Notes under the pieces: generated by a model
What the model was told of the DNA's origin: nothing
The model's database searches: none
What the model saw: the letters and a program-made list of their open reading frames with translations, nothing else
NCBI GenBank assembly: GCA_038231435.1
Contig: JBBRLJ010000065.1
Coordinates: 1 to 20,978 of the forward strand
Direction: 5' to 3'
Source of the DNA: Planctomycetota bacterium
Lineage (GTDB): Bacteria; Planctomycetota; UBA11346
Length of the DNA stretch: 20,978 nucleotides
Shown here: positions 1,840-20,091 of the stretch, in pieces
How positions within the stretch are numbered: position 1 is the stretch's first letter
Layout of the letters: every line of letters begins with the position of its first letter
Program-made: the position numbers and the translations under genes

Positions 1840-2889
1840 TCAGCGACCATCAGCGCTCGCTGGAGACACGGGGGCCCTTATCGAGGAGCCAGGTTCATCG
1901 GGCCGAACGGCGGCCGGCCCTTCCTCACAACCGAAATTGAGGCGTGCTTGTTCAGTGACCAGCGGGCGTTTGCGAACCTGGAAATGGATCGCGCTGACGT
2001 ATTCGCCCAGAATTCCGAAGAAGAACATCTGAATTCCGGAAAAGAAGAAGATCGCGACGATCAGCGTGGGGATTCCGGGAGGGGCCAGGGTTCCCAGGTA
2101 GATGAAATTCGCGATCAGGGTGATGCAGGCGAAGGCAATGCTCAGCCCAGCGAGGATGAAGCCGAACAACATGCACATGCGCATGGGAAGATTGGTGAAT
2201 GAGATGAGTCCATTGAGTCCCTGGTCGACAAGATGGAAAATGCGGTTTTTCGAAAACCCACGCTTTCGAGCTTTCCAGGTGTAAGCGACGCCAATGGTGC
2301 GGAAACCGCAGCTGGCGATCATGCCCCGGATATAGGGATAGTGGTCATCGAATTTGCGCAGCGCGGTGATCACGCAACGGTCGACGAGTTGGAACTCGCC
2401 CACATCGGGCGGGATGTGGATGTCGGCGAATCGGCTCACCGCGCGGTAGTAGACTTTGCGCACGATGCGCATCAGCAGACCCTCTTCGCGGTTGGCGCGG
2501 ATACCGTAGATGACCTGATGGCCTTCTTCCCACTTGCGGACGAAGTTGATGATGATCTCGGGAGGATCCTGGAGGTCTGCGGCGAGCAGGACGACCACCG
2601 CATCTCCACTGGTGGCGAGGACCCCATTGAAGGTGGAGCGGAAGGGGCCGAAGTTTCGGGCGTTGAAGATCACCTTCACACGCGGATCCTCAAGAGCCAT
2701 GCGACGCAGCGTGGCGGGTGTGCCGTCGCGCGAAGCATTGTCGCAGAAGATGTGTTCGAAGTCGTAAGTCGGGAGGCTCTCAGCGAAGATCCGTGCCACC
2801 ACCCGGTGGCACTCCTCGACGTTGTCTTCCTCGTTGTAGCACGGAGTGACGATGCTGATGAGCTTGGGACGCTCGGGGTGGTGGTTCAT
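1840..2889 (-). CDS. GT2 polyprenol-phosphate glycosyltransferase (GtrB/DPM-synthase-like), copy 1
   Basis: ISIVTPCYNEEDN, DNASRDGT, RNFG, AADLQDPPE, two C-terminal TM helices, GILGEYV, RKRP. ATG at 2889 aligns with the start of copy 2. Confidence 0.9.
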   Translation of the reverse strand: MNHHPERPKLISIVTPCYNEEDNVEECHRVVARIFAESLPTYDFEHIFCDNASRDGTPATLRRMALEDPRVKVIFNARNFGPFRSTFNGVLATSGDAVVVLLAADLQDPPEIIINFVRKWEEGHQVIYGIRANREEGLLMRIVRKVYYRAVSRFADIHIPPDVGEFQLVDRCVITALRKFDDHYPYIRGMIASCGFRTIGVAYTWKARKRGFSKNRIFHLVDQGLNGLISFTNLPMRMCMLFGFILAGLSIAFACITLIANFIYLGTLAPPGIPTLIVAIFFFSGIQMFFFGILGEYVSAIHFQVRKRPLVTEQARLNFGCEEGPAAVRPDEPGSSIRAPVSPASADGR

Positions 2890-3088
2890 GCCGTTGCCTC
2901 GAGAAATGAACAACCATGGGTATCTGGATATGTCATAAGGAATATGCAGTCACTTCGGAGCGAACTGGTGATCACGTACCTGTTCTGGAAAATAGGCCCT
3001 CTGAACGCCATGTGGAATGGTAGCATTGTCGAAGAGCGTGTGGCGGCAAACGGAGAAACGGCTTCGGTAGAGTCCCCTGCGTACTACC

Positions 3089-4543
3089 TTATCCTCGCGG
3101 ATCCAACGCCTTCGACCCCTCGGGCACCTTGCGTGTCGACCCGGTGTGCGGCGCCGCATTGACGAATTCGCTGTCGGCGCAGGCTTCGCGATTGACCTCG
3201 TTGAACGCCGCGATGATGGCGTCGAGGCTGGCCTTGGACTCGGTCTCGGTCGGCTCGATGAGCATGCTGTTGTGCAGGTGCTTGGGGAAGTATACGCAGC
3301 CCGCTCCGACCAGGGTGGGAGGATGGATGCCGAGGTCGATCAGGCGCTTGGCGAAGCTGTAGGGGGTGATCGGTAGAGACCTGCCAGATAGCAGGCATTC
3401 GTGCATGCAGTGCTTGTCGAAGGCGGGTGGCAGGATCCCGCGCAGGTGGTGCTGCAGGTAGTTGGCGTTCAGCACCGCATCCTGGGATGCCTCGCGCAGT
3501 CCATCGGGGCCCATCGAGAGGATGTAGCAGTAAGCGCGGATCAGCACGCCGATGTGACCCAGATGCGACTTCATCCGGCCGATCGAGTCGCGCATGCCAT
3601 CGTCTAGCGAGAAATGGCCCTGGGCGTCGAGGCGCACCACCGGCTTTGGGAAATGCTCGGCGAGGAAGCGCTTCACGCCCACCGGGCCGGCCCCCGGGCC
3701 GCCGCCGCCGTGCGGGGTGGACAACGTCTTGTGGGTATTGATGTGCACGACATCGAAGCCCATGTCGCCCGGACGGACCAGGCCCATCAGCGCATTGAGG
3801 TTCGCGCCATCGTAATACAGCAGTCCGCCCTTGGCGTGGACCATCGCGGCGATGCGCGCGATGTTGGATTCGAACAGGCCCAGCGTGGAAGGATTGGTGA
3901 GCATCAGCCCAGCGATGCCCCCGCCTTCGAGCGCGCGCGCGAGCGCGTCGAGATCCATCAGGCCGGACGCGTCGGTCGCGACGATGCGGCAGGTGAAGCC
4001 GGCCATCGACGCTGACGAGGGATTGGTACCGTGCGCCGAGTCGGCGATCAGCAGGATGTCGCGTTTTTCTCCGCCTTTCGCCGCGAGTTTCTCGAAATGC
4101 TTCTTGATGATGAGCAGGCCGGTGAGTTCGCCATGTGCGCCGGCCGCCGGCTGCAGGCAGACTTCGTCGACGCCGGTGAGTTCGGCGATGTGCCGCGCGA
4201 GCGCGTGCAGTAGTGCGAGCACGCCTTGGATGGTGGACTCGGGCTGCAGGGGGTGGACGTGGCGGAAGCCCGGCAGGTTGGCGTTCGCGTCATGGCGCTT
4301 CGGGTTGTACTTCATCGTGCAGGAGCCGAGCGGATAGGCCCCGTTGTCGACGCCGTGGCTGCGGCTGCTGAGCTGGGTGAAATGGCGGACGACTTCGACC
4401 TCGGCGACCTCGGGCAGGGCAAGCGACGTGACGCGACGCGGCAAATCGCCGAGGTCGGGCTCGGCGTCGGCCGGAAATTCACCGTCGCGCACCCAGGCGC
4501 CGCCGGCTCCGGGCCGGCTACTCTCGATCAGGGTGGGCTTCAT
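3089..4543 (-). CDS. gcvPB: Glycine dehydrogenase (decarboxylating) P-protein subunit 2-like, PLP-binding
   Basis: YPLGSCTMKYNP, QPAAGAHGELTG, SAHGTNPSSA, LMLTNPSTLG, YYDGAN, HINTHKTLSTPHGGGGPG (PLP Lys), IEPTETESK. TGATG overlap with the gcvPA stop. Confidence 0.92.
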   Translation of the reverse strand: MKPTLIESSRPGAGGAWVRDGEFPADAEPDLGDLPRRVTSLALPEVAEVEVVRHFTQLSSRSHGVDNGAYPLGSCTMKYNPKRHDANANLPGFRHVHPLQPESTIQGVLALLHALARHIAELTGVDEVCLQPAAGAHGELTGLLIIKKHFEKLAAKGGEKRDILLIADSAHGTNPSSASMAGFTCRIVATDASGLMDLDALARALEGGGIAGLMLTNPSTLGLFESNIARIAAMVHAKGGLLYYDGANLNALMGLVRPGDMGFDVVHINTHKTLSTPHGGGGPGAGPVGVKRFLAEHFPKPVVRLDAQGHFSLDDGMRDSIGRMKSHLGHIGVLIRAYCYILSMGPDGLREASQDAVLNANYLQHHLRGILPPAFDKHCMHECLLSGRSLPITPYSFAKRLIDLGIHPPTLVGAGCVYFPKHLHNSMLIEPTETESKASLDAIIAAFNEVNREACADSEFVNAAPHTGSTRKVPEGSKALDPRG

Positions 4544-5919
4544 CACGCCACCGCCTTCGCGAATGCGGCGGCCATGCGCTCGAGTTCAGCCCTGGTCTTG
4601 GTTTCGGTGACCGCCACCAGGATGGTGCCGGGGCGGCCGAGCGTCGCGCCATCGAGGCCGCCGAGGATCCCGCCGTCGAGCAGCCGCGCGAGAGTCTCGG
4701 TCGATCTGGGTACGGTGACCAGGAACTCGTTGAAGACCGGCGCGCCGCAGGCCCGGCGCACGCCCGGGATGCGCGTGAGCGCGTCCGCGAGGAACTGGGT
4801 CTTGGCGGCGATGATGCGCGCGAGGCGGCGCAGCCCGGTGTCGCCGAGCAGGCTGAGGTAGATGGCGGCGCGCACGCTGCACAGTGCCTGGTTCGAGCAG
4901 ATGTTGCTGGTCGCCTTCTCGCGCGCGACGTGCTGCTCGCGGTCCTCGTGCACCAGCGCGTACGCGGGATTACCGTAGATATCGGCGACCTTGCCCACCA
5001 GGCGCCCGGGCATGTGCCGGCGCAGATCCTTGCGGCAGGCGAGGAAACCCAGTGTCGGTCCGCCGGCGCACAGCGGGATGCCCAACGGCTGGCCTTCGCC
5101 GCAGACGATGTCGGCGCCCTGCTCGCCGGGCACCTGCAGCAGGCCGCTGAGCAGTGGATTCCACGACACCGCGGTGATCGCGCCGTGGCGGCGGCAGACT
5201 TCGGAGATCTTCGCCACGTGCTCGATCACACCAAAGCGATTGGGAGACTGCACCAGCACCACCGCCGGCGATGAGGCAGCGAGGAGGCGTTCGAGCGCCG
5301 CCAGGTCGACCCGCCCAGACTCTGCTTCGCAAGGCAGGTCGGCGAGGTCGACGCCACGGCCATACATGTAGGTACCCAGGACCTCGCGGTGCTGCGGCCA
5401 AAGCGTGGCGGCGGCGATGACCACGGGCGTGGCGCCTGATCCGGCTTTCATCGCCAGTGCCTGGCGTCCCACCCACGCCGCGTCGGCTAGGGCGGTGGCG
5501 CCATCGTAGGATGACGAGTTGACCACCGGCAGGCCGGTGATCGCGCCGATTGCCTGTTGGTACTCGGCCAACGCCTGCAGCAGGCCCTGGCTCATCTCGG
5601 GTTGATAGGGGGTGTACGCGGTCAGGAATTCGCCGCGGCTGGCGATGGCATCGACCACCGCAGGGACGTGATGATCGTACATCCCGCCGCCGAGGAAGCT
5701 GAGGTGCGTGCGGGTGGTGGCATTGCGGTCCGCGAGGGCACGCAGATGGGCGTCGAGCGCCCATTCGGACATCGCGGCGGGGACATCGAGCGCTCTGGAG
5801 AAACGCAGGTCTTTGGGGATGGCGGTGAAGAGATCATCGATCGAGCCGAGGCCCATCGACGTCAACATCGCATCCCGGTCGCTGGGCAAGTGGACGATGT
5901 AATTGGCCAGATCGGCCAT
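4543..5919 (-). CDS. gcvPA: Glycine dehydrogenase (decarboxylating) P-protein subunit 1-like
   Basis: FLGGGMYDHHVP, EFLTAYTPYQPEMSQGLLQ, YDGATA, GEGQPLG, MPGRLVG, REQH..REKATSNICSNQAL. Confidence 0.92.
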   Translation of the reverse strand: MADLANYIVHLPSDRDAMLTSMGLGSIDDLFTAIPKDLRFSRALDVPAAMSEWALDAHLRALADRNATTRTHLSFLGGGMYDHHVPAVVDAIASRGEFLTAYTPYQPEMSQGLLQALAEYQQAIGAITGLPVVNSSSYDGATALADAAWVGRQALAMKAGSGATPVVIAAATLWPQHREVLGTYMYGRGVDLADLPCEAESGRVDLAALERLLAASSPAVVLVQSPNRFGVIEHVAKISEVCRRHGAITAVSWNPLLSGLLQVPGEQGADIVCGEGQPLGIPLCAGGPTLGFLACRKDLRRHMPGRLVGKVADIYGNPAYALVHEDREQHVAREKATSNICSNQALCSVRAAIYLSLLGDTGLRRLARIIAAKTQFLADALTRIPGVRRACGAPVFNEFLVTVPRSTETLARLLDGGILGGLDGATLGRPGTILVAVTETKTRAELERMAAAFAKAVA

Positions 5920-6175
5920 CTGAGGTCGCTCCGGTCACCGATCCGAGGCTGCCGCGAATGCGAGCGCTGCACCAGTACGGCTACAGGCGGCATGTTTGAC
6001 GAGGTGTCCGGAGTGTCAACCGCAAACCACGAGAAAACCAGCTCTTGCGGACGTCCGAGCCAGAGTGGCGCGAGCGCACCGCTTGCGCACGACACCACGC
6101 GTCCATACCGTGCGTCCCGCCCCCGACAGCGTGGGGACGTGGCCGGAAAGGCCGATTCCTCCGGAGGGATGCACG
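5920..6175. promoter_or_regulatory. Divergent promoter region between gcvPA and the asnB-like gene
   Basis: 256-bp gap between head-to-head genes. Contains TTGAC-N14-GTCAA (5996-6019), whose right half is a perfect TTGACA on the minus strand. GGAGG lies upstream of ATG 6176. Confidence 0.45.
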
Positions 6176-7924
6176 ATGTGCGGCGTTGCAGGAGTGGTAG
6201 GCAGCAGGTCGGCCGAGCCGGCGCAGGTCGCCGAGATGATCGCATGCATCCGCTACCGCGGCGTCGACGAGGCGGGCGTCGAGGACCTCGGCCACGCCAT
6301 CCTCGGCCACGCGCGCTTGGCGGTCGTCGATCCGAAGAACGGCCACCAGCCGATGTCCAACACCGACGATTCGGTGTGGGTGGTGTTCAACGGCGAGATT
6401 TACAACTACGTCGAGCTGCGCGAGGAGCTGAAGGCCAAGGGCTACGTCTTCAAATCCCGTTGCGACACCGAGGTGCTCGTTCACCTGTGGCGCGAGGAAG
6501 GCGAGGCGATGCTGCAGCGCCTCATCGGCATGTTCGCATTCTTCATCTGGGACAAGACGGCGAATACCGGCATCCTAGTTCGCGATCGATTCGGCATCAA
6601 GCCGATGTTCATCGCCGACCACCAGGGCGGCACCGCCTTCTGCAGCGAGATCAAGGGCCTACTCTCGCTGCCCGGCATGCGCAAGGAGATCGACCGCGAC
6701 GGCCTGGTGCAGACCTTCTCATTTAACTACTGCCCGCCACCGCGCACTTGCTTCGCCGGCATCCGCCACCTTGAGCCTGGTACTTTCCTGCGCTTCAAGC
6801 CGGGCAAGCCCACCGAGCAGGTGCGCTGGTGGAACTGGCCCTTGTTCGACGAGCGCCGCGAGCCGGGCTTCGATGAGCTCAAGTCTCTGCTCGACGACGC
6901 GGTGCGCATGCAGATGCGCTTCGACGTCGAAGGCGGCCTCTACCTCAGCGGCGGCATCGATTCGTCGGTGGTGGCGAGCCACCTGCGTACGCAGTGGAAC
7001 CGCCCGCGCCTGCCGGCCATCGGCCTGCGCTTCAAGGAGCAGGACTACTCCGAATACGATTATTCGCAGCAGGCCGCATCGATCCTGGGCATCGATCTCG
7101 AGCCAGCTGACATCGAGTGGTCGATGATCCCCGAGATCGCCGACCAGGTCGTGCGTCATGCCGAGCAGCCGCACGGCGACTTCTCGTTCTTCCTGTTCTA
7201 CGTGCTCGCGCGCAAGGCGAATCGCCAGAAGAAGATCGTGATGTTCTCAGGCGACGGCCCCGATGAGGCACTGTTCGGCTTCAACCACAACGTCAATTTC
7301 TTCCACGCCAACGCGCGCACCAATTTCCCGCTCAAGGCCTACTTCGATACCATCTGCTACATGGACGAGGGGGCCCGGGCACGCCTGCTCTCTCCGGATC
7401 TCACCCGCGGCACCACCGATCCCCTCGACCGCTTCGGCGAGATCATCGAACCGTGGCAGGATCTCGATCCCGTCGAGCAGGTGATCGCCTACGAGTGCAC
7501 GTCGCTGATGCCCGGCAACAACTTGGTCAAGGGCGACCGCATGGGCGCCGGCTGGTCGACCGAGGGCCGCTCGCCATTCCTCGACCACCGCGTGATGGAG
7601 TTGTTCACCCGCCTGCCGGTCGGCCGCAAGATCCAAGAGGGCGTGGGCAAGGCCTACTTGAAGGCCTACGCCGCGAAGATCTTTCCCGAGCAGTTCGTGT
7701 ACGGTAAGAAGCGCATGCCCACTACGCCCATCGGCAACTGGCTGCAGGGGCCGCTCTACGGTTGGGCCAAGTCGGTCATCGAAAGCGAGACCAACGGCAT
7801 CTTCAACCGTCCCGCGGTCTCGGCGCTGCTCGAGGAGCACCGCTCGGGGGCGGCGAACCATACGCGTTCGCTGCGCACCATCCTGATGGCTCATCTGTGG
7901 CTGAAGGCATTCTTCCCCGCCTGA
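6176..7924 (+). CDS. asnB: AsnB-like class II (Ntn) glutamine amidotransferase / ATP-dependent amide synthetase
   Basis: Starts MCGVAG (catalytic Cys). GHARLAVVD, FNGEIYNY, DTEV, GMFAF, RDRFGIKP, LSGGIDSS, SGDGPDE, RSPFLDH. True start is ATG 6176, not 5996. Confidence 0.9.
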   Translation: MCGVAGVVGSRSAEPAQVAEMIACIRYRGVDEAGVEDLGHAILGHARLAVVDPKNGHQPMSNTDDSVWVVFNGEIYNYVELREELKAKGYVFKSRCDTEVLVHLWREEGEAMLQRLIGMFAFFIWDKTANTGILVRDRFGIKPMFIADHQGGTAFCSEIKGLLSLPGMRKEIDRDGLVQTFSFNYCPPPRTCFAGIRHLEPGTFLRFKPGKPTEQVRWWNWPLFDERREPGFDELKSLLDDAVRMQMRFDVEGGLYLSGGIDSSVVASHLRTQWNRPRLPAIGLRFKEQDYSEYDYSQQAASILGIDLEPADIEWSMIPEIADQVVRHAEQPHGDFSFFLFYVLARKANRQKKIVMFSGDGPDEALFGFNHNVNFFHANARTNFPLKAYFDTICYMDEGARARLLSPDLTRGTTDPLDRFGEIIEPWQDLDPVEQVIAYECTSLMPGNNLVKGDRMGAGWSTEGRSPFLDHRVMELFTRLPVGRKIQEGVGKAYLKAYAAKIFPEQFVYGKKRMPTTPIGNWLQGPLYGWAKSVIESETNGIFNRPAVSALLEEHRSGAANHTRSLRTILMAHLWLKAFFPA

Positions 7925-8003: not shown

Positions 8004-9299
8004 ATGCTGAGCTCGATCGCGAAGTCCGAAAAGATCGACTACTTCCTGGTCAGCTTCGTCGACCTTGCCGGCGTCATGCGTTCGAAGCTCGTCCCGGCCC
8101 GCGCCATCGACATCATCGCCGGTGAAGGCGCCGCCTTTGCCGGCTTTGCCACCCACCTCGACATGACGCCAGCTTTCCCGGACATCGTGGTGATGCCCGA
8201 CGAGTCGACCCTCACCATGCTGCCGTGGCGAATTGGGGTCGCCTGGTTGACCGGTGACCTGATGATGGATGGCAAACTCGTCGAGCACGCCCCGCGCGCG
8301 GTGCTCGGACGCCAGCTCGAGGCGGCCACGGCCGCTGGCCACGTGATGAAAACCGGCGTCGAGCCCGAGTTCTTCCTGCTCGCGGCCGATGGCTCGGGGC
8401 CCGCCGATCCGCTCGACGCGGCCGCGAAGCCCTGCTACGACCAGGCGGCGCTGATGCGGCGATTCGATCTCATCAAGGAGATCTGCGATGCCATGCAGTC
8501 GCTCGGCTGGCAGCCCTATCAGAACGATCACGAGGACGCCAACGGCCAGTTCGAGATGAACTGGAAGTACGCCGACGCGCTGGTCACCGCCGACCGCCAC
8601 GCATTCTTCAAGTTCATGGTCAGGTCGCTTGCCGAGAAGCACGGGTTGCGCGCGACCTTCATGCCCAAGCCGTTCTCGCACCTCACCGGCAATGGCTGCC
8701 ATTGCCATGTATCTCTGTGGGACAAGACAGGAAAAAAGAACCAGTTCGTCGACCAGAAGGGTGATCTCGGGCTGTCGCAGCTCGCCTACCATTTCCTGGG
8801 TGGCGTCCTCGACCACGCGCAGGCGTTGTGCGCGGTCACCAACCCCACTGTGAACAGCTACAAGCGCCTCAACGCGGCGCGCACCGACTCCGGTTCAACC
8901 TGGGCTCCGCGCACCGTGTCCTACGGCGGCAACAACCGCAGCCACATGGTGCGAATTCCCGCCGGCGACCGCTTCGAGTTCCGGCTCGGCGACGGGGCCG
9001 CGAACCCGTACCTACTCCAAGCCGGCCTGCTCGCCGCGGGGCTCGATGGCGTGCGCAAGAAGACCGCTCCCGGCAAGCGCATGGACATCAACATGTATGA
9101 GAGCCGCGATCTGGGTGGCGCCAAGCTGCTGCCTGGAAACCTGCTCGACGCGCTGCGCGCGTTCACCGCCGATCCGGTGCTGCGCGCTGCTCTCGGCGAG
9201 CGCTTCCACGAGACCTACCTTCGCCTGCGCATGGGGGATTGGAACGGTTCGATGGCCCAGGTCAGCGAGTGGGAACGGAAGCAGCTGCTGGACGTCTGA
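8004..9299 (+). CDS. glnT: GlnT-type (type III) glutamate-ammonia ligase / gamma-glutamylmethylamide synthetase (GmaS)-like
   Basis: YFLVSFVDLAGVMRSKLVP, FAGFATHLDMTP, GVEPEFFL, KPCYDQ, YQNDHEDANGQFEMNW, ATFMPKPF, TGNGCHCH, NSYKRL, NNRSHMVRIP, RFEFRLGDGAANPYL. These match the GlnT/GmaS subfamily rather than GlnA type I. Confidence 0.85.
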   Translation: MLSSIAKSEKIDYFLVSFVDLAGVMRSKLVPARAIDIIAGEGAAFAGFATHLDMTPAFPDIVVMPDESTLTMLPWRIGVAWLTGDLMMDGKLVEHAPRAVLGRQLEAATAAGHVMKTGVEPEFFLLAADGSGPADPLDAAAKPCYDQAALMRRFDLIKEICDAMQSLGWQPYQNDHEDANGQFEMNWKYADALVTADRHAFFKFMVRSLAEKHGLRATFMPKPFSHLTGNGCHCHVSLWDKTGKKNQFVDQKGDLGLSQLAYHFLGGVLDHAQALCAVTNPTVNSYKRLNAARTDSGSTWAPRTVSYGGNNRSHMVRIPAGDRFEFRLGDGAANPYLLQAGLLAAGLDGVRKKTAPGKRMDINMYESRDLGGAKLLPGNLLDALRAFTADPVLRAALGERFHETYLRLRMGDWNGSMAQVSEWERKQLLDV

Positions 9300-9350: not shown

Positions 9351-10340
9351 TCACCTCGGCGGTTCCACCGCCGGAGTGTCGGTAAAATTCAACCGCCCCT
9401 GCTCAGTCACCAACGGTCGTTTGCGCACCTGGAAGTGGATGGCGCTGACGTATTCGCCGAGGATGCCGAAGAAAAACATCTGGATGCCCGAGAAGAAGAA
9501 AATCGCCACGATCAGAGTAGGGATGCCGGGAGGAGCCAGCGTGCCCAGGTTGATCAGATTGATGATCAGGGTCGCGATCGCGAAGGCGATGCTCAGTCCT
9601 GCCAGGATGAAGCCGAGGAGCATGCACATGCGCATGGGCAGGTTGGTGAACGAGATCAGGCCGTTCAGGCCCTGGTCGACGAGATGGAAGAGCCGGTTCT
9701 TCGAGAAGCCGCGCTTGCGCGCCTTCCAGGTGTAGGCGACGCCGGTGGTGCGGAACCCACAGCTGGCGATCATGCCGCGGATGTACGGATAGTGGTCGTC
9801 GAATTTCCGCAGCGCAGTGATCACGCAGCGGTCGACGAGTTGGAATTCGCCCACATCGGGCGGGATGTGGATGTCGGCGAAACGGCTCACCGCTCGGTAG
9901 TACGCCTTGCGCACGATGCGCATCATCAACCCTTCTTCGCGGTTGGCACGGATGCCATAGATCACCTGATGGCCTTCCTCCCACTTACGGACGAAGTCGA
10001 CGATCACTTCCGGGGGGTCCTGCAAGTCGGCGGCGAGTAATACGACCACCGCGTCGCCGCTGGTGGCGAGCACGCCATTGAACGTGGATCGGAAGGGGCC
10101 GAAGTTGCGCGCGTTGAAGATCACCTTCACTCGCGGGTCCTCGAGCGCCATGCGACGCAGCGCTTCCGGCGTCCCGTCTCGAGAGGCGTTGTCGCAGAAG
10201 ATGTGTTCGAGGTCATAGCCCGGCAGGCTGTCGGCGAAGATCTTCGACACCACCCGATGGCATTCCTCGACGTTGTCCTCCTCGTTGTAGCAGGGAGTGA
10301 CGATGCTGATGAGCTTGCGTCGCTCTGGTTGATCGGTCAT
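9351..10340 (-). CDS. GT2 polyprenol-phosphate glycosyltransferase (GtrB-like), copy 2
   Basis: Same motifs as copy 1. ATG at 10340 overlaps the GtrA-like stop (ATGA). The ORF-track extension to 10805 is spurious. Confidence 0.9.
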   Translation of the reverse strand: MTDQPERRKLISIVTPCYNEEDNVEECHRVVSKIFADSLPGYDLEHIFCDNASRDGTPEALRRMALEDPRVKVIFNARNFGPFRSTFNGVLATSGDAVVVLLAADLQDPPEVIVDFVRKWEEGHQVIYGIRANREEGLMMRIVRKAYYRAVSRFADIHIPPDVGEFQLVDRCVITALRKFDDHYPYIRGMIASCGFRTTGVAYTWKARKRGFSKNRLFHLVDQGLNGLISFTNLPMRMCMLLGFILAGLSIAFAIATLIINLINLGTLAPPGIPTLIVAIFFFSGIQMFFFGILGEYVSAIHFQVRKRPLVTEQGRLNFTDTPAVEPPR

Positions 10341-10738
10341 GTCGCGGCCTTGTCCGGAAATACGAAGGCGCGCAGCGCGCCCCAAGTTGCGATAACCACG
10401 ATCGGCAGGCACAGCAGCTGCGCCAGCAACGGATCGGCGATCCAGGCACCGCGCACGATCCTGAGCAGTCCCAGGTTCAGCAGGTATGACCCCGTGTACA
10501 CCAGTAGAAAACGCGCGAGGGCCCCGTATCCCCGCGCGCGGAATACCAGCGTGCGGGCGATGGCGAAGTTGAATGCCACGCCTACGCAGGTCGCGAGGAG
10601 CAAGGCGGCGGATGCCGGCGAGCCCGCGAGGATCAGTAGCGCATAGATACCGTAGCCGATGGCGGTATTCAGCGCGCCGACTACGAGGAAGCGCACGAAC
10701 GGGCGTTCCCAAGCAACGGACGCGATCATCCGCATCAT
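10337..10738 (-). CDS. GtrA-like polyprenol-phosphate sugar translocase
   Basis: ~130 aa, about 4 TM segments, 'FVRFLVVGALNTAIGYGIY', 'FNF...RTLVFR', C-terminal 'RAFVF'. Coupled to the GT2 gene. Start uncertain (10729-10756). Confidence 0.88.
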   Translation of the reverse strand: MMRMIASVAWERPFVRFLVVGALNTAIGYGIYALLILAGSPASAALLLATCVGVAFNFAIARTLVFRARGYGALARFLLVYTGSYLLNLGLLRIVRGAWIADPLLAQLLCLPIVVIATWGALRAFVFPDKAAT

Positions 10739-12842: not shown

Positions 12843-15800
12843 CTAGAACTCCTGCCCCAGTTGTCGCCTCACCAGCTCGCGTTGCGCTCCAGCCGCGATC
12901 ACTTTCAACAGCTCGTCTCCACCCGGCAGATCCATGCCGGCGAGGCGCTCGCACACCTGGGCCATGCGGTTCTCGGCCTGCAGGTAGGTGGACAGGGTGT
13001 CCCACAGTCGGTTCTCGGTCAGGTAGGTCTTGCACCAGGTGAGGCCTTCCTTGTAGACCATGCGGCTGGCGAGGCGCTTGGAGAGGATGGCGACGCGATG
13101 CGGGCGCGGGATGCGCGTCTCGATGCGCTCCCGCCAGCGCTCGACCAGGAGCGGCGGGCAGTGCGCCTGGAGATGCCGCGTCCAGGTCTCGGCCATGTCC
13201 GGGTCGGCGAGATGCGCGTCGATGGCCGGCTCGAGCAGGCCGCTGACGCGGTTGATCTCCTCGCTCAGCTGCTGCGACAGATCGCTCAAGCGCGCCGCAT
13301 GCCCGCGGCGCTTCCAGGCGGCGATCAGGGCCTGGGCCTCGGCGCGCGCGCGTTCGCGGATGATCTCGAGCACCTCGGCGACGTAGCGTTCCTTGACCGC
13401 GATGAACTCATCGTCGCTGAGCACCAGGCCGGCGAGCACCTCGTAGCTCGAGCAGATCACCCCGCCCTTGTTGGCGGACGAGTCCTTGATGTCGATCAAG
13501 CCTGCGTCCTCGAGATGGCGCCGCGCCGCCGGGGTCAGGAAGATGTTCGCGCCCTCGACCATCGCGCGCGCGGTCGGCTTCCCATCAGCGCCAAGGAATT
13601 GCTTCCAGTTCTCGTCGTTGATGGTGTAGGGACGTCCTCCGCACGGCACGAACAGGTCGGCTGGAACGGTGTTGTGCAGCGAATTGCGCAGGTCCTCGCC
13701 TGCCTTGTCGGTCGCGGCGGTGACCTTGCCCTCGCGCGACAGGCGCGCGGCGTTGAAGCGCGCGATGCCCTGGCTCTCGCGCACCAGGCGCAGCAGCTCC
13801 TTCCAGTCGAGGCCCTTGGGATCAGTCGCGCTGCCGGTGCCGTCGGCGATCGCAACCACCTTGGCGCGCGAGCCGTGCTCGCGCTCGAGCACCTTGATCA
13901 GGTTGCCGCCGACGTCGCCGTCGGGGCCGCCGGTGATCTTGACCGTATACGGCTTCCCTTCGGGGATGCCGACCAGCGGCAGCACCAGGCTGATCCAGCG
14001 GAAAATGCCCTCGGAGGTGACGCCGAATTCCTTGTGGTTGATCCCCGAACCGGGCTTGGACGACATCAGCGTGGCGTGGTGCGGCAGGCCGCGCGATTTT
14101 GCGCGCGCCGCCACCCACGAGATGCGTTCCGGCGTCATGTTCTCGTCGGGACCGAGGAAGATCAGGTCCGCTTCGCGTTTCTCGCCGTGCGCGCCGACCA
14201 CATCGGGCACCGACTCGGGCGGCAGGATGAGGTCGAGCAGCGAATCGACCAGCTGCCTGACCGCGCCGTCGGCGTTGCCGCCGGGCTCGACCAGGGCGAT
14301 GCACTTGCTGCCGCCCTCGGGTATGTCCTTGTTCTTCAGCTGCTGGGCCCAAGCGAGGTCGTAGACCTCCTTGAGCACTCCATCTCGCGCGCGCTCGTAC
14401 TGGCCGGGATTGCGTGGGATCAGCACGCGCAGCCCGCCACGCGCCGAGGCGCGGAAGCGGATGTGGAAGCCGCGCGCCTGCGGACCATGGAAGTAGAACA
14501 TCCCGTACGGGCGATGGGTGAAGCGCGCCGCAGGCAGCACCTCGGGATCGAGCTTGAACGCGAGTCCGAGACGTTCGGGGCGGAAGGCGTTGGTCAGGCG
14601 CATCGCCCCGACGAACGCGAGCATGCCCTCGAGCACCGCGGCATGGCTGCGCGGCTCGATCGCATGGGCCTTGGCCAGCGCCGCTTGCTGGCGTTTCTCC
14701 CACGTGGCGCTTCCGGGTCGCGCGCCCGGATGGAAGCGCGCCGAGATCAGATCGCACAGCTCGCGGCAAAGATCGCCCTGCGACGCGACCACCTCCTCGC
14801 CGACCTCGGTGACATCGAGGTACGGATAGTCGTGGGCGAGCAGGTAGGTCGAGAAGCCGATCGCGGCGCGCAGGAGCGCCAGCTGATCGAGGCCATAGCT
14901 GCCATCGAGGTAGCGCGCCGCCAGGCCATCCTGGTATTGCCGGCGCACCTGGCGCAGATCGTCTTCGACCAGGCCGATGAGCTTGTCGCCGAGCGTCTTG
15001 CCCGCGGCGGTGGTGACGTAGATGGTGGCGATGATCGCCTTGGCGCCGCCCGCGACCGCCGGCACGTAGTCGAGGTAGCCCCGTGCGAGCGTCAGTCCGT
15101 GCCGACGCATCACGCGCGCGGCATGGCCGAGGAGCTCCCAGGGCGTGACGCCGGCGGTGGCCACGAGGATGCGGGTGGCGTGGTCGTCGCCGTGGTCGTG
15201 GGCGAGGTGGATGTCCTCTTCGGAGGCGAGCGAACTCCAGGCGCGGATGTGGCGGACCACGCGTTCGACGTTCGAGCGCGCGAGGTAGCCCGGATCGACC
15301 GCGTCGAGGAACCGCCCGGCGACGGTCGAGCAGCCGTCATCGCCAGCGCACGCCGCTTCCAGGATCTTGGCGCGATGGGCGGCCAGATTCGGAGTGGCGG
15401 GCAGCTGATCCTTACCGTAGCAGAACGCGTAGAGGAATAAGCCGCGATCGCGGCTGGTGTGCAGCTCGACGCGGTGGATCAGGCGTTCGGAGAAGCCCTT
15501 GGTGTCCGCTCCCCGGGTCTCGACCAGCGCCATCACGTCGAGCAGCGAATGCAGGTCGGGTTTGCCGAACACCAGCAGCTTACCGCTCGAGCTGTCGTCG
15601 ATCACGCTCAAGCGCGGTTCGTCCGCGCGCCTGACCATATGGATCATCTCGAGATGGAGGGCCTGCTCGCCGGGGCTGGTGACCTGGAAGTAGGTCTGTG
15701 GCATCTGCGCGTAGAACCATCGCACCGTGGTCTCGAGGTCGCCCAGGATGTGCTCCTGGATGCGCGCGAGCATGGCGGCCGCCTGCGGCCCGGCGGCAAC

Positions 15801-15845
15801 GCTTCTGGCGGACGATCCCGAAGACTGCCCACTGCGTGAAGCCAT
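12843..15845 (-). CDS. Large (~1000 aa) NAD-specific glutamate dehydrogenase
   Basis: GFHIRFRASARGGLR, KNKDIPEGGSK, FLGPDEN, SSKPGSGINHKEFGVTSEG, GGPDGDVG, PCGGRP, VEGANIF, KDSSANKGGVICSSYEV. ATG 15845 follows a GGGGG RBS; ORF open from 15902. Confidence 0.9.
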   Translation of the reverse strand: MASRSGQSSGSSARSVAAGPQAAAMLARIQEHILGDLETTVRWFYAQMPQTYFQVTSPGEQALHLEMIHMVRRADEPRLSVIDDSSSGKLLVFGKPDLHSLLDVMALVETRGADTKGFSERLIHRVELHTSRDRGLFLYAFCYGKDQLPATPNLAAHRAKILEAACAGDDGCSTVAGRFLDAVDPGYLARSNVERVVRHIRAWSSLASEEDIHLAHDHGDDHATRILVATAGVTPWELLGHAARVMRRHGLTLARGYLDYVPAVAGGAKAIIATIYVTTAAGKTLGDKLIGLVEDDLRQVRRQYQDGLAARYLDGSYGLDQLALLRAAIGFSTYLLAHDYPYLDVTEVGEEVVASQGDLCRELCDLISARFHPGARPGSATWEKRQQAALAKAHAIEPRSHAAVLEGMLAFVGAMRLTNAFRPERLGLAFKLDPEVLPAARFTHRPYGMFYFHGPQARGFHIRFRASARGGLRVLIPRNPGQYERARDGVLKEVYDLAWAQQLKNKDIPEGGSKCIALVEPGGNADGAVRQLVDSLLDLILPPESVPDVVGAHGEKREADLIFLGPDENMTPERISWVAARAKSRGLPHHATLMSSKPGSGINHKEFGVTSEGIFRWISLVLPLVGIPEGKPYTVKITGGPDGDVGGNLIKVLEREHGSRAKVVAIADGTGSATDPKGLDWKELLRLVRESQGIARFNAARLSREGKVTAATDKAGEDLRNSLHNTVPADLFVPCGGRPYTINDENWKQFLGADGKPTARAMVEGANIFLTPAARRHLEDAGLIDIKDSSANKGGVICSSYEVLAGLVLSDDEFIAVKERYVAEVLEIIRERARAEAQALIAAWKRRGHAARLSDLSQQLSEEINRVSGLLEPAIDAHLADPDMAETWTRHLQAHCPPLLVERWRERIETRIPRPHRVAILSKRLASRMVYKEGLTWCKTYLTENRLWDTLSTYLQAENRMAQVCERLAGMDLPGGDELLKVIAAGAQRELVRRQLGQEF

Positions 15846-15983
15846 CTGAACCCCCATACAAGTATACACCGCCGCCAGGGTTGCGACAGATGCCATGCGC
15901 ACTCGCCTCGACGCTCAAAGCCCGGCCTGCTGGCCCCGTGGACATGGACTGGAGCTGGCCGCGGACTACGATCGGAGACCCTC

Positions 15984-17572: not shown

Positions 17573-19195
17573 TCATCGAGGCGTCATCGGACACGCATCC
17601 ACCACCAGGAGATCGTGGATCCATGCATCGAAACGTGTCTCGTCAACGCGCTCCCAGAACATCGCCGACATCACGGCGTATACGCTGGGAAGCCGATCCG
17701 CGTGGATTTCCACGCGCACGCGCGGATCCCGGTGGCGATAGTTGTTCACGTTGAAATTACCTGGGATGAAGTCATGGAGATCGGGGATCTCCGTGCCCGT
17801 CTCGTCCAGATTGCGAGCATACCTGGTCTCATCCGCGAAGACCATCTTCATCATTCCGCAATATTCATAGAACCGAAACACCTGATCCAACGGGTTGAAA
17901 TCGTTGGTCAGGTCGTTGATCCAGAATGAGGTGTTCCGTCTGATGAGATCGTTGCTGGACATGCTCCGCATGACCGCGAGCTGCTTATACCAGTCGCGTT
18001 GGTACTCGAGATGCCGGTGCATGGTCATCGTGCCGGCAGCGAGGACCGATGCGATGAGCAACGCATGTTTGAGTCTGCGCAACGCGGGCGATCGATCCAG
18101 CAACGCAGCGAGTCCGAAACAAATGATGAAGGAGATGCCGAGAGGCATGAGCAGTTGGTGGCGATCGTCCCAGTCGAACGGTCTCGGGATCTTTCCGACG
18201 GCAACGTACGGATAGATTCCGAGGATGAGCATGACTCCCCCGAGGGACATGAGGAGCAGGCAGGTCCCGGTGTCCGCCACGAAGCGTTTCCGGAACGGCC
18301 AGAGGGTGATCAGGGCGACGCCAGCGAACAGGATATACGCGGTACGCCGGGGCCACTCCGGGAAGATGCCGTAGCACATCCCATAGAGCAGGTGGTTCAG
18401 CGTGCGTTCGATACCTTCGGCATTCCTCAATCCGCCGAGCGTGATGTGGTTGTAACCCGCGTCCTCAGGCTTCCAGAACGCCAGCCGGAAGACCGAATAT
18501 ACGAGAGGAAGGAGCAGGAAATCCAGGTGACGGACCGCAAGGCCGAATGCCGCGCGCCGGCCTGTTCTCAATGCGGCGACGTTACGGTAGATCAGATATG
18601 CGACGATCAGCGGATAGAATGCCAGCAAGGACATGGTTGAGAAGGACAGTGCGGCGAGCGCCAGTACCGCCAACCGCCAGCCGAGGCGCCCGCTGCTGGT
18701 GAAGCGCGAGGCGCACCAGAATGCGCTGAAGAACAGCAGATAGCAAACCGCGTAATGGAAGCAGGCGATGGAGATTCGAGCGGTATTGACGGGGATCAGG
18801 GCGAAGAGCGAGCACACGGCCAAGCGCGTGACCGGATCGATCTGATGCATGGTGCGCAGGATGGAATAGAGTGCCAGCGCGGCACCGAGATAGCACCCGA
18901 AGGTGGCGATCCGGTATGCGGCTACAGGCCAGGGCAATGCCGAGAAGAAGCCATGGAGACTCGAGAGCAGCGGGATCCCCAGCGAATCGAGATGATTCGC
19001 GACCAGGAGCGGGTCGCACCCGACGATACACCAATCGTCCCAGTACAGACCATGATTGAGCAGCATCACGCCGTGGAACAGGCTGTAGACGATGGTCAGG
19101 AGCCACGCGCCATGGGATGCTGCGAGCTGCGCCGGTTTCCAGTCTGAGCCATGCATCCGATCGATTTCCGGGGATGCCTGATGAATGTCAATCAT
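17573..19195 (-). CDS. Polytopic GT-C-like membrane protein (GtrC/GtrII-type candidate)
   Basis: 540 aa. First TM is followed by the acidic YWDDW loop, then ~11 TM segments and a soluble C-terminal domain. ATG 19195 overlaps the upstream stop (ATGA). Family is inferred from architecture only. Confidence 0.6.
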   Translation of the reverse strand: MIDIHQASPEIDRMHGSDWKPAQLAASHGAWLLTIVYSLFHGVMLLNHGLYWDDWCIVGCDPLLVANHLDSLGIPLLSSLHGFFSALPWPVAAYRIATFGCYLGAALALYSILRTMHQIDPVTRLAVCSLFALIPVNTARISIACFHYAVCYLLFFSAFWCASRFTSSGRLGWRLAVLALAALSFSTMSLLAFYPLIVAYLIYRNVAALRTGRRAAFGLAVRHLDFLLLPLVYSVFRLAFWKPEDAGYNHITLGGLRNAEGIERTLNHLLYGMCYGIFPEWPRRTAYILFAGVALITLWPFRKRFVADTGTCLLLMSLGGVMLILGIYPYVAVGKIPRPFDWDDRHQLLMPLGISFIICFGLAALLDRSPALRRLKHALLIASVLAAGTMTMHRHLEYQRDWYKQLAVMRSMSSNDLIRRNTSFWINDLTNDFNPLDQVFRFYEYCGMMKMVFADETRYARNLDETGTEIPDLHDFIPGNFNVNNYRHRDPRVRVEIHADRLPSVYAVMSAMFWERVDETRFDAWIHDLLVVDACPMTPR

Positions 19196-19833
19196 ACCGC
19201 CGAGGCCATCGCGGCCGCCTGCACCACCGCCGCCTGCGCCGGATCGAGATCCACCAGCGCGGTGCCGCGCCACGCCAGGCGTGCGGGCAGCCCGCGCGGA
19301 TCGCGTTCGAGCAGGACCTTCACGAAGCAGCAGGCCGCCGCATAGCTGCCGAGCGGGGCTGCGTGGCGCCGATCGGAAGGGTCGTACAGCGGCAGTGCCG
19401 GCTCGCGCTCCAGGGCCCGGCTCCAGGCCCGGGCCGCGGGCACGCCATCGATCCCCAGACTCTCTTCGGCAGCCGCGTAGGCCTGGTTCATGGGCGTAGC
19501 GTTCTCGGGATGGTCCTGCTCGGGCCAGACCTCGTAGAGTAGCGGACGGGCTCCGCCGGCGCGCGCGAGGTCGGCCAAAGGCTCCAGATCGCGCAGCAGC
19601 GCCGCCGTGCCTGGAAATGGATGCGAGACCTGCTGGAAGGACACGGCGTCGAAGCCGCCGAAGCGCAGCGCATCGAGCGTCATGGGCTGTCCGCGATGCC
19701 ATTCGAGGCTCATGCCGCCAACGGTGAGCATGGTAACATCGATGGGCGCGCCGATGGACGCAGCCAGGGCCGCGACCTGCCAGGGCAGGGCGTTGCAGAA
19801 TGTGTGGCTGTTGCCGACGAAGAGGACGCGCAT
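19192..19833 (-). CDS. SGNH/GDSL hydrolase-family protein
   Basis: MRVLFVGNSHTF (block I Ser), GGMSL, FDAVSFQQ, DRRH (DxxH) followed by GSYAAA. True start is ATG 19833; the upstream ORF-track portion is antisense to carB. Confidence 0.8.
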   Translation of the reverse strand: MRVLFVGNSHTFCNALPWQVAALAASIGAPIDVTMLTVGGMSLEWHRGQPMTLDALRFGGFDAVSFQQVSHPFPGTAALLRDLEPLADLARAGGARPLLYEVWPEQDHPENATPMNQAYAAAEESLGIDGVPAARAWSRALEREPALPLYDPSDRRHAAPLGSYAAACCFVKVLLERDPRGLPARLAWRGTALVDLDPAQAAVVQAAAMASAV

Positions 19834-20091
19834 GACAGGGACGTAAGGGGGGTGGGAGCAGGTACAATCCGCAAGCCTGCGGCCGGTCGCACGCGGGGTC
19901 GCTGACGGCCTGGAGAGTCCTCTCGCGAACGCTCCCGGACGAGTCCTGCTAGTACCGCCCCTCCATGCGGTTAGGAACATGAGCGCGGTTGTCGAAAGCC
20001 GCTCTTGCGTACGCGACATCGCACCTAGCCTTGCGCGAGTTTTTGCACCGGGAGGACCGCTGAGGCCCGTCTCGAACCACAGCTGGAACCC

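Follow-up and report, generated by a model that had tools for sequence, protein, structure and literature searches.

A divergent GcvPA/GcvPB clade shares a probably mobile cassette with AsnB and GmaS in surface-glycan clusters and may supply methylamine for N-methylamidation

In this study, a stretch of 20,978 nucleotides from a Planctomycetota bacterium was analyzed (contig JBBRLJ010000065.1 of assembly GCA_038231435.1), hereafter called the window, which is the complete contig C65 of a host genome that is 87.6% complete. The gene pair gcvPA*-gcvPB* of this window belongs to a distinct GcvPA/GcvPB clade, named GcvP* here, which is homologous to the glycine cleavage P protein but fails two of its defining features, the basic H-protein docking loop and the linkage to gcvT and gcvH. 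Together with asnB* and gmaS the pair forms a four-gene cassette that replaces a plain asnB in surface-glycan clusters, and cassette and plain asnB exclude each other in one and the same slot. Judged from sequence and gene content, the cassette probably converts glycine to free methylamine and, via gamma-glutamylmethylamide, to an N-methylamide on a carboxylate of the surface glycan. This chain is the simplest one that uses all four genes. The clade, its residues, its linkage and the slot exchange were observed directly, and from them we infer each chemical step.

Results

A preliminary description of the window had reported altered motifs in both subunits next to an intact pyridoxal 5'-phosphate (PLP) lysine motif. 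The alterations are not due to chance and mark the GcvP* clade. The canonical control consisted of 79 loci from a scan of genome contigs, and the same scan gave a single clade locus, L006 (L numbers denote loci and G numbers genomes of the comparison sets). With 46 metagenome loci collected by the insertion pattern of the beta subunit, the clade set comprised 47 loci. The insertion is present by construction in the 46 pattern-collected loci, and the residues of the alpha subunit (PA) and the gene context were unselected. Aligned were 29 clade PA sequences of sufficient length, 78 canonical PA sequences and 38 clade beta subunits (PB), the latter forming 30 groups at 90% identity. Position 325 of PA is Glu in all 29 clade sequences and Gln in all 78 canonical ones, position 332 is Ala or Ser in 29/29 compared with Arg in 78/78, and position 331 is Val in 29/29; none of the canonical sequences carries the altered loop motif. 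The mean net charge of residues 316-337 is -0.45 in the clade and +3.79 in the canonical set. In PB, a six-residue insertion was found in 119/119 non-self proteins among the 120 homologs listed (identity 56-69%, a few 54-55%) and in 0/79 canonical loci. The canonical C-terminal motif of PB is absent in 119/119 full-length homologs, which were used for this count because the C-terminal gaps of the alignment reflect tblastn truncation. Five PDB sequences and the fused GcvP of the host genome itself keep Gln and Arg and have no insertion. A further motif, NSSSYDG, which had also been listed as altered, is not diagnostic, as 31/78 canonical sequences have Ser there and clade members differ from one another at position 137.

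Both reading frames are intact in the window and exceed the NCBIfam equivalog cut-offs. gcvPA* (4543-5919, minus strand) encodes the alpha subunit of 458 aa (NF001696, 496.5 bits, cut-off 364) and gcvPB* (3089-4546, minus strand) the PLP-bearing beta subunit of 484-485 aa (NF003346, 595.4 bits, cut-off 441). The remodelled loop, PA residues 316-337 (4909-4974, minus strand), has a net charge of -1, with E325, D326, V331 and A332 exchanged and K335 kept, and its motif LVHEDREQHVAREK is located at 4915-4956. The PB motif HPPTLVGAGCVYFP lies at 3284-3325 and contains, according to the homologue alignments, the insertion LVGAGC with an invariant Cys (PB 412-417; 3296-3313, minus strand). The PLP lysine K273 (3728-3730, minus strand) in the intact motif HINTHKT is invariant in the 38 clade and 79 canonical sequences.

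Neither the 47 class relatives nor the 400 phylum genomes searched (two overlapping sets) gave a match to the insertion pattern, and the best 15 of 38 plasmid matches do not resemble clade members. Databases annotate clade proteins as ordinary GcvPB. Cultured hosts of the clade, known here from GcvPB* alone, are Nitrospina gracilis 3/211, Cerasicoccus spp. and Sorangium sp.; therefore, the enzyme can be tested. In eight clade loci (L105, L106, L113, L118, L121, L124, L126 and L127) PA and PB are fused in one frame of about 900 aa, and these fused GcvP* proteins are apparently separate from canonical fused GcvP.

When the numberings of PDB 6i33 and of the human protein are taken to differ by 43 (counted by us, and consistent with the identities of the variant residues listed), E325, D326, V331, A332 and K335 correspond to human Q366, T367, I372, R373 and K376. 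These five residues are marked as H-protein interface of the human P protein, and R373 and K376 are modelled as salt bridges to the H-protein, in the interface annotation of PMC7259800, which derives from a ClusPro docking model in a loop described by the authors as uncertain. Under this docking-model assignment, K335 alone remains of the basic docking loop. The insertion falls in the interval that corresponds to human T894-W897, two residues which the same annotation assigns to the active site (PMC7259800). Thus, the substitutions fall at the modelled H-interface and the insertion at the active site. All 11 annotated active-site positions compared (human Y161, Y164, C382, T559, G618, H651, T698, H753, H760, T894 and W897) are kept in the clade, ten of them invariant and W897 as Phe or Tyr. 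The sequences suggest a catalytic core that is kept and an entrance that is changed. An AlphaFold model of PB alone has a predicted local distance difference test score (pLDDT) of 59 over residues 411-420 and is uninformative for the insertion.

The gene pair had been described as an orphan. Indeed, neither gcvT nor gcvH is present in the window, and upstream of gcvPA* lies a divergent asnB. Taken alone, this state proves little in the host genome, because its housekeeping genes are scattered over three contigs as well: C4 carries a canonical fused GcvP of 979 aa, C67 gcvH and C30 gcvT. Since this canonical fused GcvP is encoded elsewhere in the genome, the pair in the window is a second copy. 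gcvT or gcvH was found beside GcvP* in 0/47 loci, and in 0/22 of those whose contig extends 1.5 kb or more upstream of gcvPA, compared with linkage in 78/79 canonical loci; the gcvT/H-linked proteins do not carry the clade substitutions. Five of seven cassette genomes have a separate gene for canonical fused GcvP (G000, G423, G583, G606 and, in pieces, G505). Canonical gcvP and gcvT were not found in G432 and G630, two genomes of unstated completeness that keep the cassette and gcvH. GcvH also serves lipoylation, and the presence of gcvH without gcvT and gcvP in these two genomes fits a role in lipoylation only.

Of the 47 GcvP* loci, many on contigs that end early, 30 contain asnB and 21 contain gmaS, with 20 containing the two together, and none of these three states occurs in the 79 canonical loci. 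Glycan genes are present in 21/23 asnB-bearing loci with flanking genes; they encode a MurJ-like flippase, a sugar phosphotransferase, NeuA/B/C, WbuX with HisH/HisF, and glycosyltransferases. An HpcH-like aldolase recurs in 10/30 asnB loci. This aldolase was searched in 301 genomes of the family of L006, of which 38 matched, and 37 loci were examined after exclusion of the own genome of L006. The aldolase clusters are largely collinear, mostly in the order aldolase, phosphotransferase (PGT), slot, GT-B and nonulosonate genes. In 27 loci the slot holds plain asnB alone and in four (L144, L145, L150 and L157) the whole gcvPA*-gcvPB*-asnB*-gmaS cassette; gcvPA* stands at the contig end in one (L152), five have neither or a cut contig, and none has both. 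No statistic was applied to these counts because the kin are not independent. The host genome itself harbors on C24 a MurJ-aldolase-PGT-GT-NeuB cluster with an empty slot (aldolase 48%, phosphotransferase 60% identity). Among five class relatives with the aldolase, four have plain asnB right behind the phosphotransferase and the fifth has none nearby. In two near-identical plasmid loci with a matching gene set, asnB adjoins the aldolase, and gcvP and gmaS are absent from them.

The cluster of MurJ-like, HpcH-aldolase, phosphotransferase, asnB, GT-B and nonulosonate genes was also seen to be widespread (L136:13677-19069, L140-L176 and L138). Its gene set fits shewanellose biosynthesis, and no genetic description of it was found in the literature.

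The clade has further gene contexts. In 12 loci (L090, L096, L101, L109, L112, L114, L115, L116, L122, L129, L131 and L134) a single-domain response regulator follows gcvPB*, with MCP/CheW/CheR, STAS/anti-sigma or histidine-kinase genes nearby. Ten of the 12 are included in a quick GcvPB* tree (with long-branch warnings), where they all fall to the same side of a split supported at 99; the tree supports this response-regulator branch, and monophyly of the whole clade is beyond its reach. In L094, an APC amino-acid permease (2161-3219) follows gcvPA*-gcvPB*, as in decarboxylase-antiporter pairs, which fits a decarboxylase releasing a free amine; gcvPB* of this locus is split in two frames. In L095, gmaS directly follows gcvPB*. 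Because of these contexts, GcvP* has more than one use.

asnB* (6176-7924, plus strand) encodes an AsnB-type amidotransferase of 582 aa that passes the cut-off of TIGR01536 (381.7, cut-off 267.1) and has the N-terminal Cys, NGEIYN and the PP-loop in the alignment. No other AsnB was found in the host genome, and asnB* forms a clade of its own with other cassette copies. The models for NAGGN amidotransferase (TIGR03104) and XrtA amidotransferase (TIGR03108) stayed below cut-off, and both assignments were rejected. The best PDB match is TsnB9 (7ylz, E 1e-49), a rank that reflects the small number of AsnB structures and not orthology. In a FastTree phylogeny, cassette AsnB (15 rows) and plain AsnB (26 rows) separate with support 100. 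Across both, 95 columns are invariant in glycan clusters, and 11 group-specific columns lie within the first 100 residues, which do not by themselves indicate the choice of donor.

gmaS (8004-9299, plus strand) encodes a 431-aa member of the gamma-glutamylmethylamide synthetase family (TIGR03105, 621.2, cut-off 469.6; best PDB match 7cql, E 1e-164). The 11 catalytic, amine-binding and glutamine synthetase (GS)-distinguishing residues that are named for RhGmaS in PMC7948447 are all kept in the window protein and in 18/18 cassette copies, including D177, E186, R312, the amine pocket, Ala at the GS Asp50 site and Trp at the Glu flap. According to the kinetic values in that source, RhGmaS has a Km of 27 uM for methylamine and 8.7 mM for ammonium (PMC7948447). 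The family calls for the loci included no mgs/mgd-like genes of the N-methylglutamate pathway. A single Glu_synthase match was obtained in the host genome, within a frame of 1534 aa; the corresponding SoxD search matched no control genome.

In the window the cassette is arranged divergently, and in other loci it is co-directional. Inspection of the sequence places an intergenic region at 5920-6175 between gcvPA* and asnB*, in which a promoter scan found no sigma-70-like site. The cassette is flanked by two GT2 glycosyltransferase genes, on the left at 1840-2913 (minus strand, PF00535) and on the right at 9351-10340 (minus strand, family profiles), the latter with gtrA and glmS upstream. The two copies (1949-2899 and 9400-10350) share 84% DNA identity over 951 bp in the same orientation and bracket the four genes, which is a possible trace of insertion or rearrangement. 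A membrane protein without Pfam or NCBIfam match (17573-19867, minus strand) adjoins the GtrA/GT2 set, has paralogs on C1 and C37 and is about 26% identical to genes located close to the cassettes of L118 and L124; it is perhaps a membrane glycosyltransferase. A glutamate dehydrogenase-like protein of 1019 aa is encoded at 12843-15902 (minus strand), to which the large bacterial models of NAD-dependent glutamate dehydrogenase match only partially.

Discussion

Probably, gcvPA*-gcvPB*-asnB*-gmaS is a mobile cassette by which an N-methylamide is installed without S-adenosylmethionine (SAM). In the proposed route, GcvP* would decarboxylate glycine on PLP, and owing to the remodelled docking loop the carbanion would be protonated instead of being passed to the lipoyl H-protein, with release of methylamine. 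Potentially, E325 or the invariant C417 acts as proton donor; Cys360 of ornithine decarboxylase is an analogous case for a Cys serving as acid. In the absence of its partners, the canonical P protein is known to form methylamine slowly. A substrate other than glycine is less likely than glycine. In the next step, GmaS would join methylamine to glutamate, an activity that was demonstrated for the family (PMC7948447). AsnB* would then hydrolyse gamma-glutamylmethylamide at Cys2 and, in analogy to FzmA and TsnB9, move methylamine to an adenylated carboxylate. The acceptor would be what plain AsnB amidates in the corresponding clusters. The most likely candidate is a pyruvate-aldol adduct of a 4-keto-6-deoxy-N-acetylhexosamine, leading to an N-methyl sugar of the shewanellose type; this is the weakest step, with about an even chance, and alternatively a uronate or nonulosonate carboxyl might be used. 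Shewanellose is described in PMC4052302 as a C4-branched carboxamide sugar found together with a derivative of 8-epilegionaminic acid. Its C4-branched carboxamide could be built by a 4,6-dehydratase, a pyruvate-type aldolase and an amidotransferase.

Several observations weigh against this route. The canonical control set is nearly all Bacillota, both subunits still exceed the canonical hidden Markov model cut-offs, and the H-interface was assigned by docking, not from a structure. The equivalent of K376 is Lys or Arg in 28/29 clade PA sequences, and GcvH is present in 6/6 cassette genomes searched; the completeness of G432 and G630, the two in which gcvT was not found, is not stated. In the glycan clusters the aldolase is visible in only 10/30 asnB loci and lies on another contig in the host genome, and in 12/47 loci a response regulator follows gcvPB* with neither asnB nor gmaS. 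RhGmaS takes ethylamine nearly as well as methylamine, with a Km of 58 uM in the values given (PMC7948447), so GmaS does not fix the identity of the amine. The conditions that the preliminary description had named as refuting it did not apply as far as sequence could address them: the altered residues do not recur in gcvT/H-linked proteins, and they lie at the modelled H-interface and the active site. Of the earlier claims, a remodelled H-docking surface is backed by the charge shift of the loop from +3.8 to -0.45. Independence of the H-protein is a weaker proposal, given the persistence of GcvH and the modelled interface. Release of a free amine gains strong contextual support from the conserved GmaS and AsnB pair, which the preliminary description had missed.

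The tolerance of RhGmaS for ethylamine, and the insertion between two active-site positions, would also suit a different amine. The pocket might be reshaped for alanine, giving ethylamine via theanine, or for serine, giving ethanolamine, so that an N-ethyl or N-hydroxyethyl amide would be made; ethanolamine amides are known on capsule uronates of Campylobacter. We regard this as unlikely, since none of the 11 annotated active-site positions has been lost, the changes cluster in the H-docking loop and the amine pocket of GmaS equals that of the methylamine enzyme at every residue checked. The persistence of GcvH, also in two genomes without gcvT, together with the retained K376 equivalent, could instead mean that GcvP* loads lipoyl-GcvH encoded elsewhere, and that aminomethyl-H, or the ammonia and formaldehyde derived from it, feeds GmaS and AsnB*. 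Aminomethyl-lipoyl-H is used beyond glycine cleavage in hydrogenase maturation (PMC11736057). Such H-dependence is improbable, as the equivalents of R373 and Q366 are replaced in 29/29 sequences, the loop charge is reversed and gcvH is found in 0/47 GcvP* loci. Moreover, GcvH has its role in lipoylation, and aminomethyl-lipoate is at the formaldehyde level, so that methylamine would need an extra reduction.

The response-regulator loci, the permease of L094 and the directly following gmaS of L095 would fit a product that is a small-molecule N-alkylamide or a signal, with the glycan location as an insertion hot spot. The exact and mutually exclusive swap with plain asnB in one slot, the 95 columns shared by cassette and plain AsnB and the empty slot in the host genome make this very improbable. 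Least credible is an ordinary, redundant P protein of glycine cleavage that drifted neutrally among unrelated neighbours: it would agree with both equivalog cut-offs being passed, but not with changes that are invariant across the clade, gcvT/H linkage in 0/47 compared with 78/79 loci, a conserved four-gene unit and a separate canonical GcvP. We therefore favor the route from glycine via methylamine and gamma-glutamylmethylamide to a glycan N-methylamide.

The wider picture would be a stand-alone glycine decarboxylase as new source of methylamine, a SAM-independent N-methylamidation that swaps among glycan clusters across phyla, and a signalling function of the response-regulator subclade; we give this combination an equal chance of being right or wrong. 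If true, it would add a new activity to a textbook family, namely a GcvP that releases methylamine, as well as an anabolic role of GmaS and a new modification of surface glycans. gmaS is used as a marker of methylamine consumption, as stated in PMC7948447; this marker and the annotations of gcvPA/PB would be misread in cassette genomes. A natural H-independent P protein would reveal why the canonical enzyme waits for lipoate, and a three-enzyme route from glycine to N-methylamides is possibly useful in biocatalysis. No description of the GcvP* clade, the cassette or such an N-methylamide sugar was found in the literature, in which subscription carbohydrate-structure journals were thinly covered.

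With the split GcvPA/GcvPB of Thermus thermophilus (PDB 1wyt), GcvP* shares the fold, the two-subunit form, the PLP lysine and the active-site residues. It differs by the exchanges of Gln to Glu and Arg to Ala or Ser in the H-docking loop, the Cys-bearing insertion, D86 and H331 of PB, the missing canonical C-terminal motif and the missing gcvT/H linkage, and by being a second copy beside canonical GcvP. Cassette GmaS shares with known GmaS (TIGR03105, 7cql) the passed cut-off and all 11 residues named in PMC7948447. Known GmaS acts in the catabolism of methylamine taken up from outside, whereas cassette GmaS is linked with a source of amine and with an amidotransferase; because of this linkage, and because no mgs/mgd-like genes were called in the loci, an anabolic carrier role is proposed. 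Shewanellose of Shewanella putrefaciens A6 (PMC4052302, compared by the structure given there alone) fits the dehydratase, HpcH-like aldolase, AsnB and nonulosonate genes of the clusters; shewanellose and the product of plain AsnB are primary amides, whereas the cassette product would be an N-methylamide. In fosfazinomycin biosynthesis FzmN/FzmA pass hydrazine, and in trichostatin biosynthesis TsnB9 passes hydroxylamine, via a gamma-glutamyl carrier to an AsnB-like enzyme, according to the pathways outlined in PMC6133997 and PMC13622209. By analogy, the cassette would work like such a glutamyl-carrier amidation relay, with the shared logic that the carrier hands a nucleophile other than ammonia to an AsnB-like enzyme. 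FzmN/FzmA and TsnB9 serve peptides or polyketides, whereas in the cassette a GcvP paralog would provide an alkylamine for transfer to a sugar.

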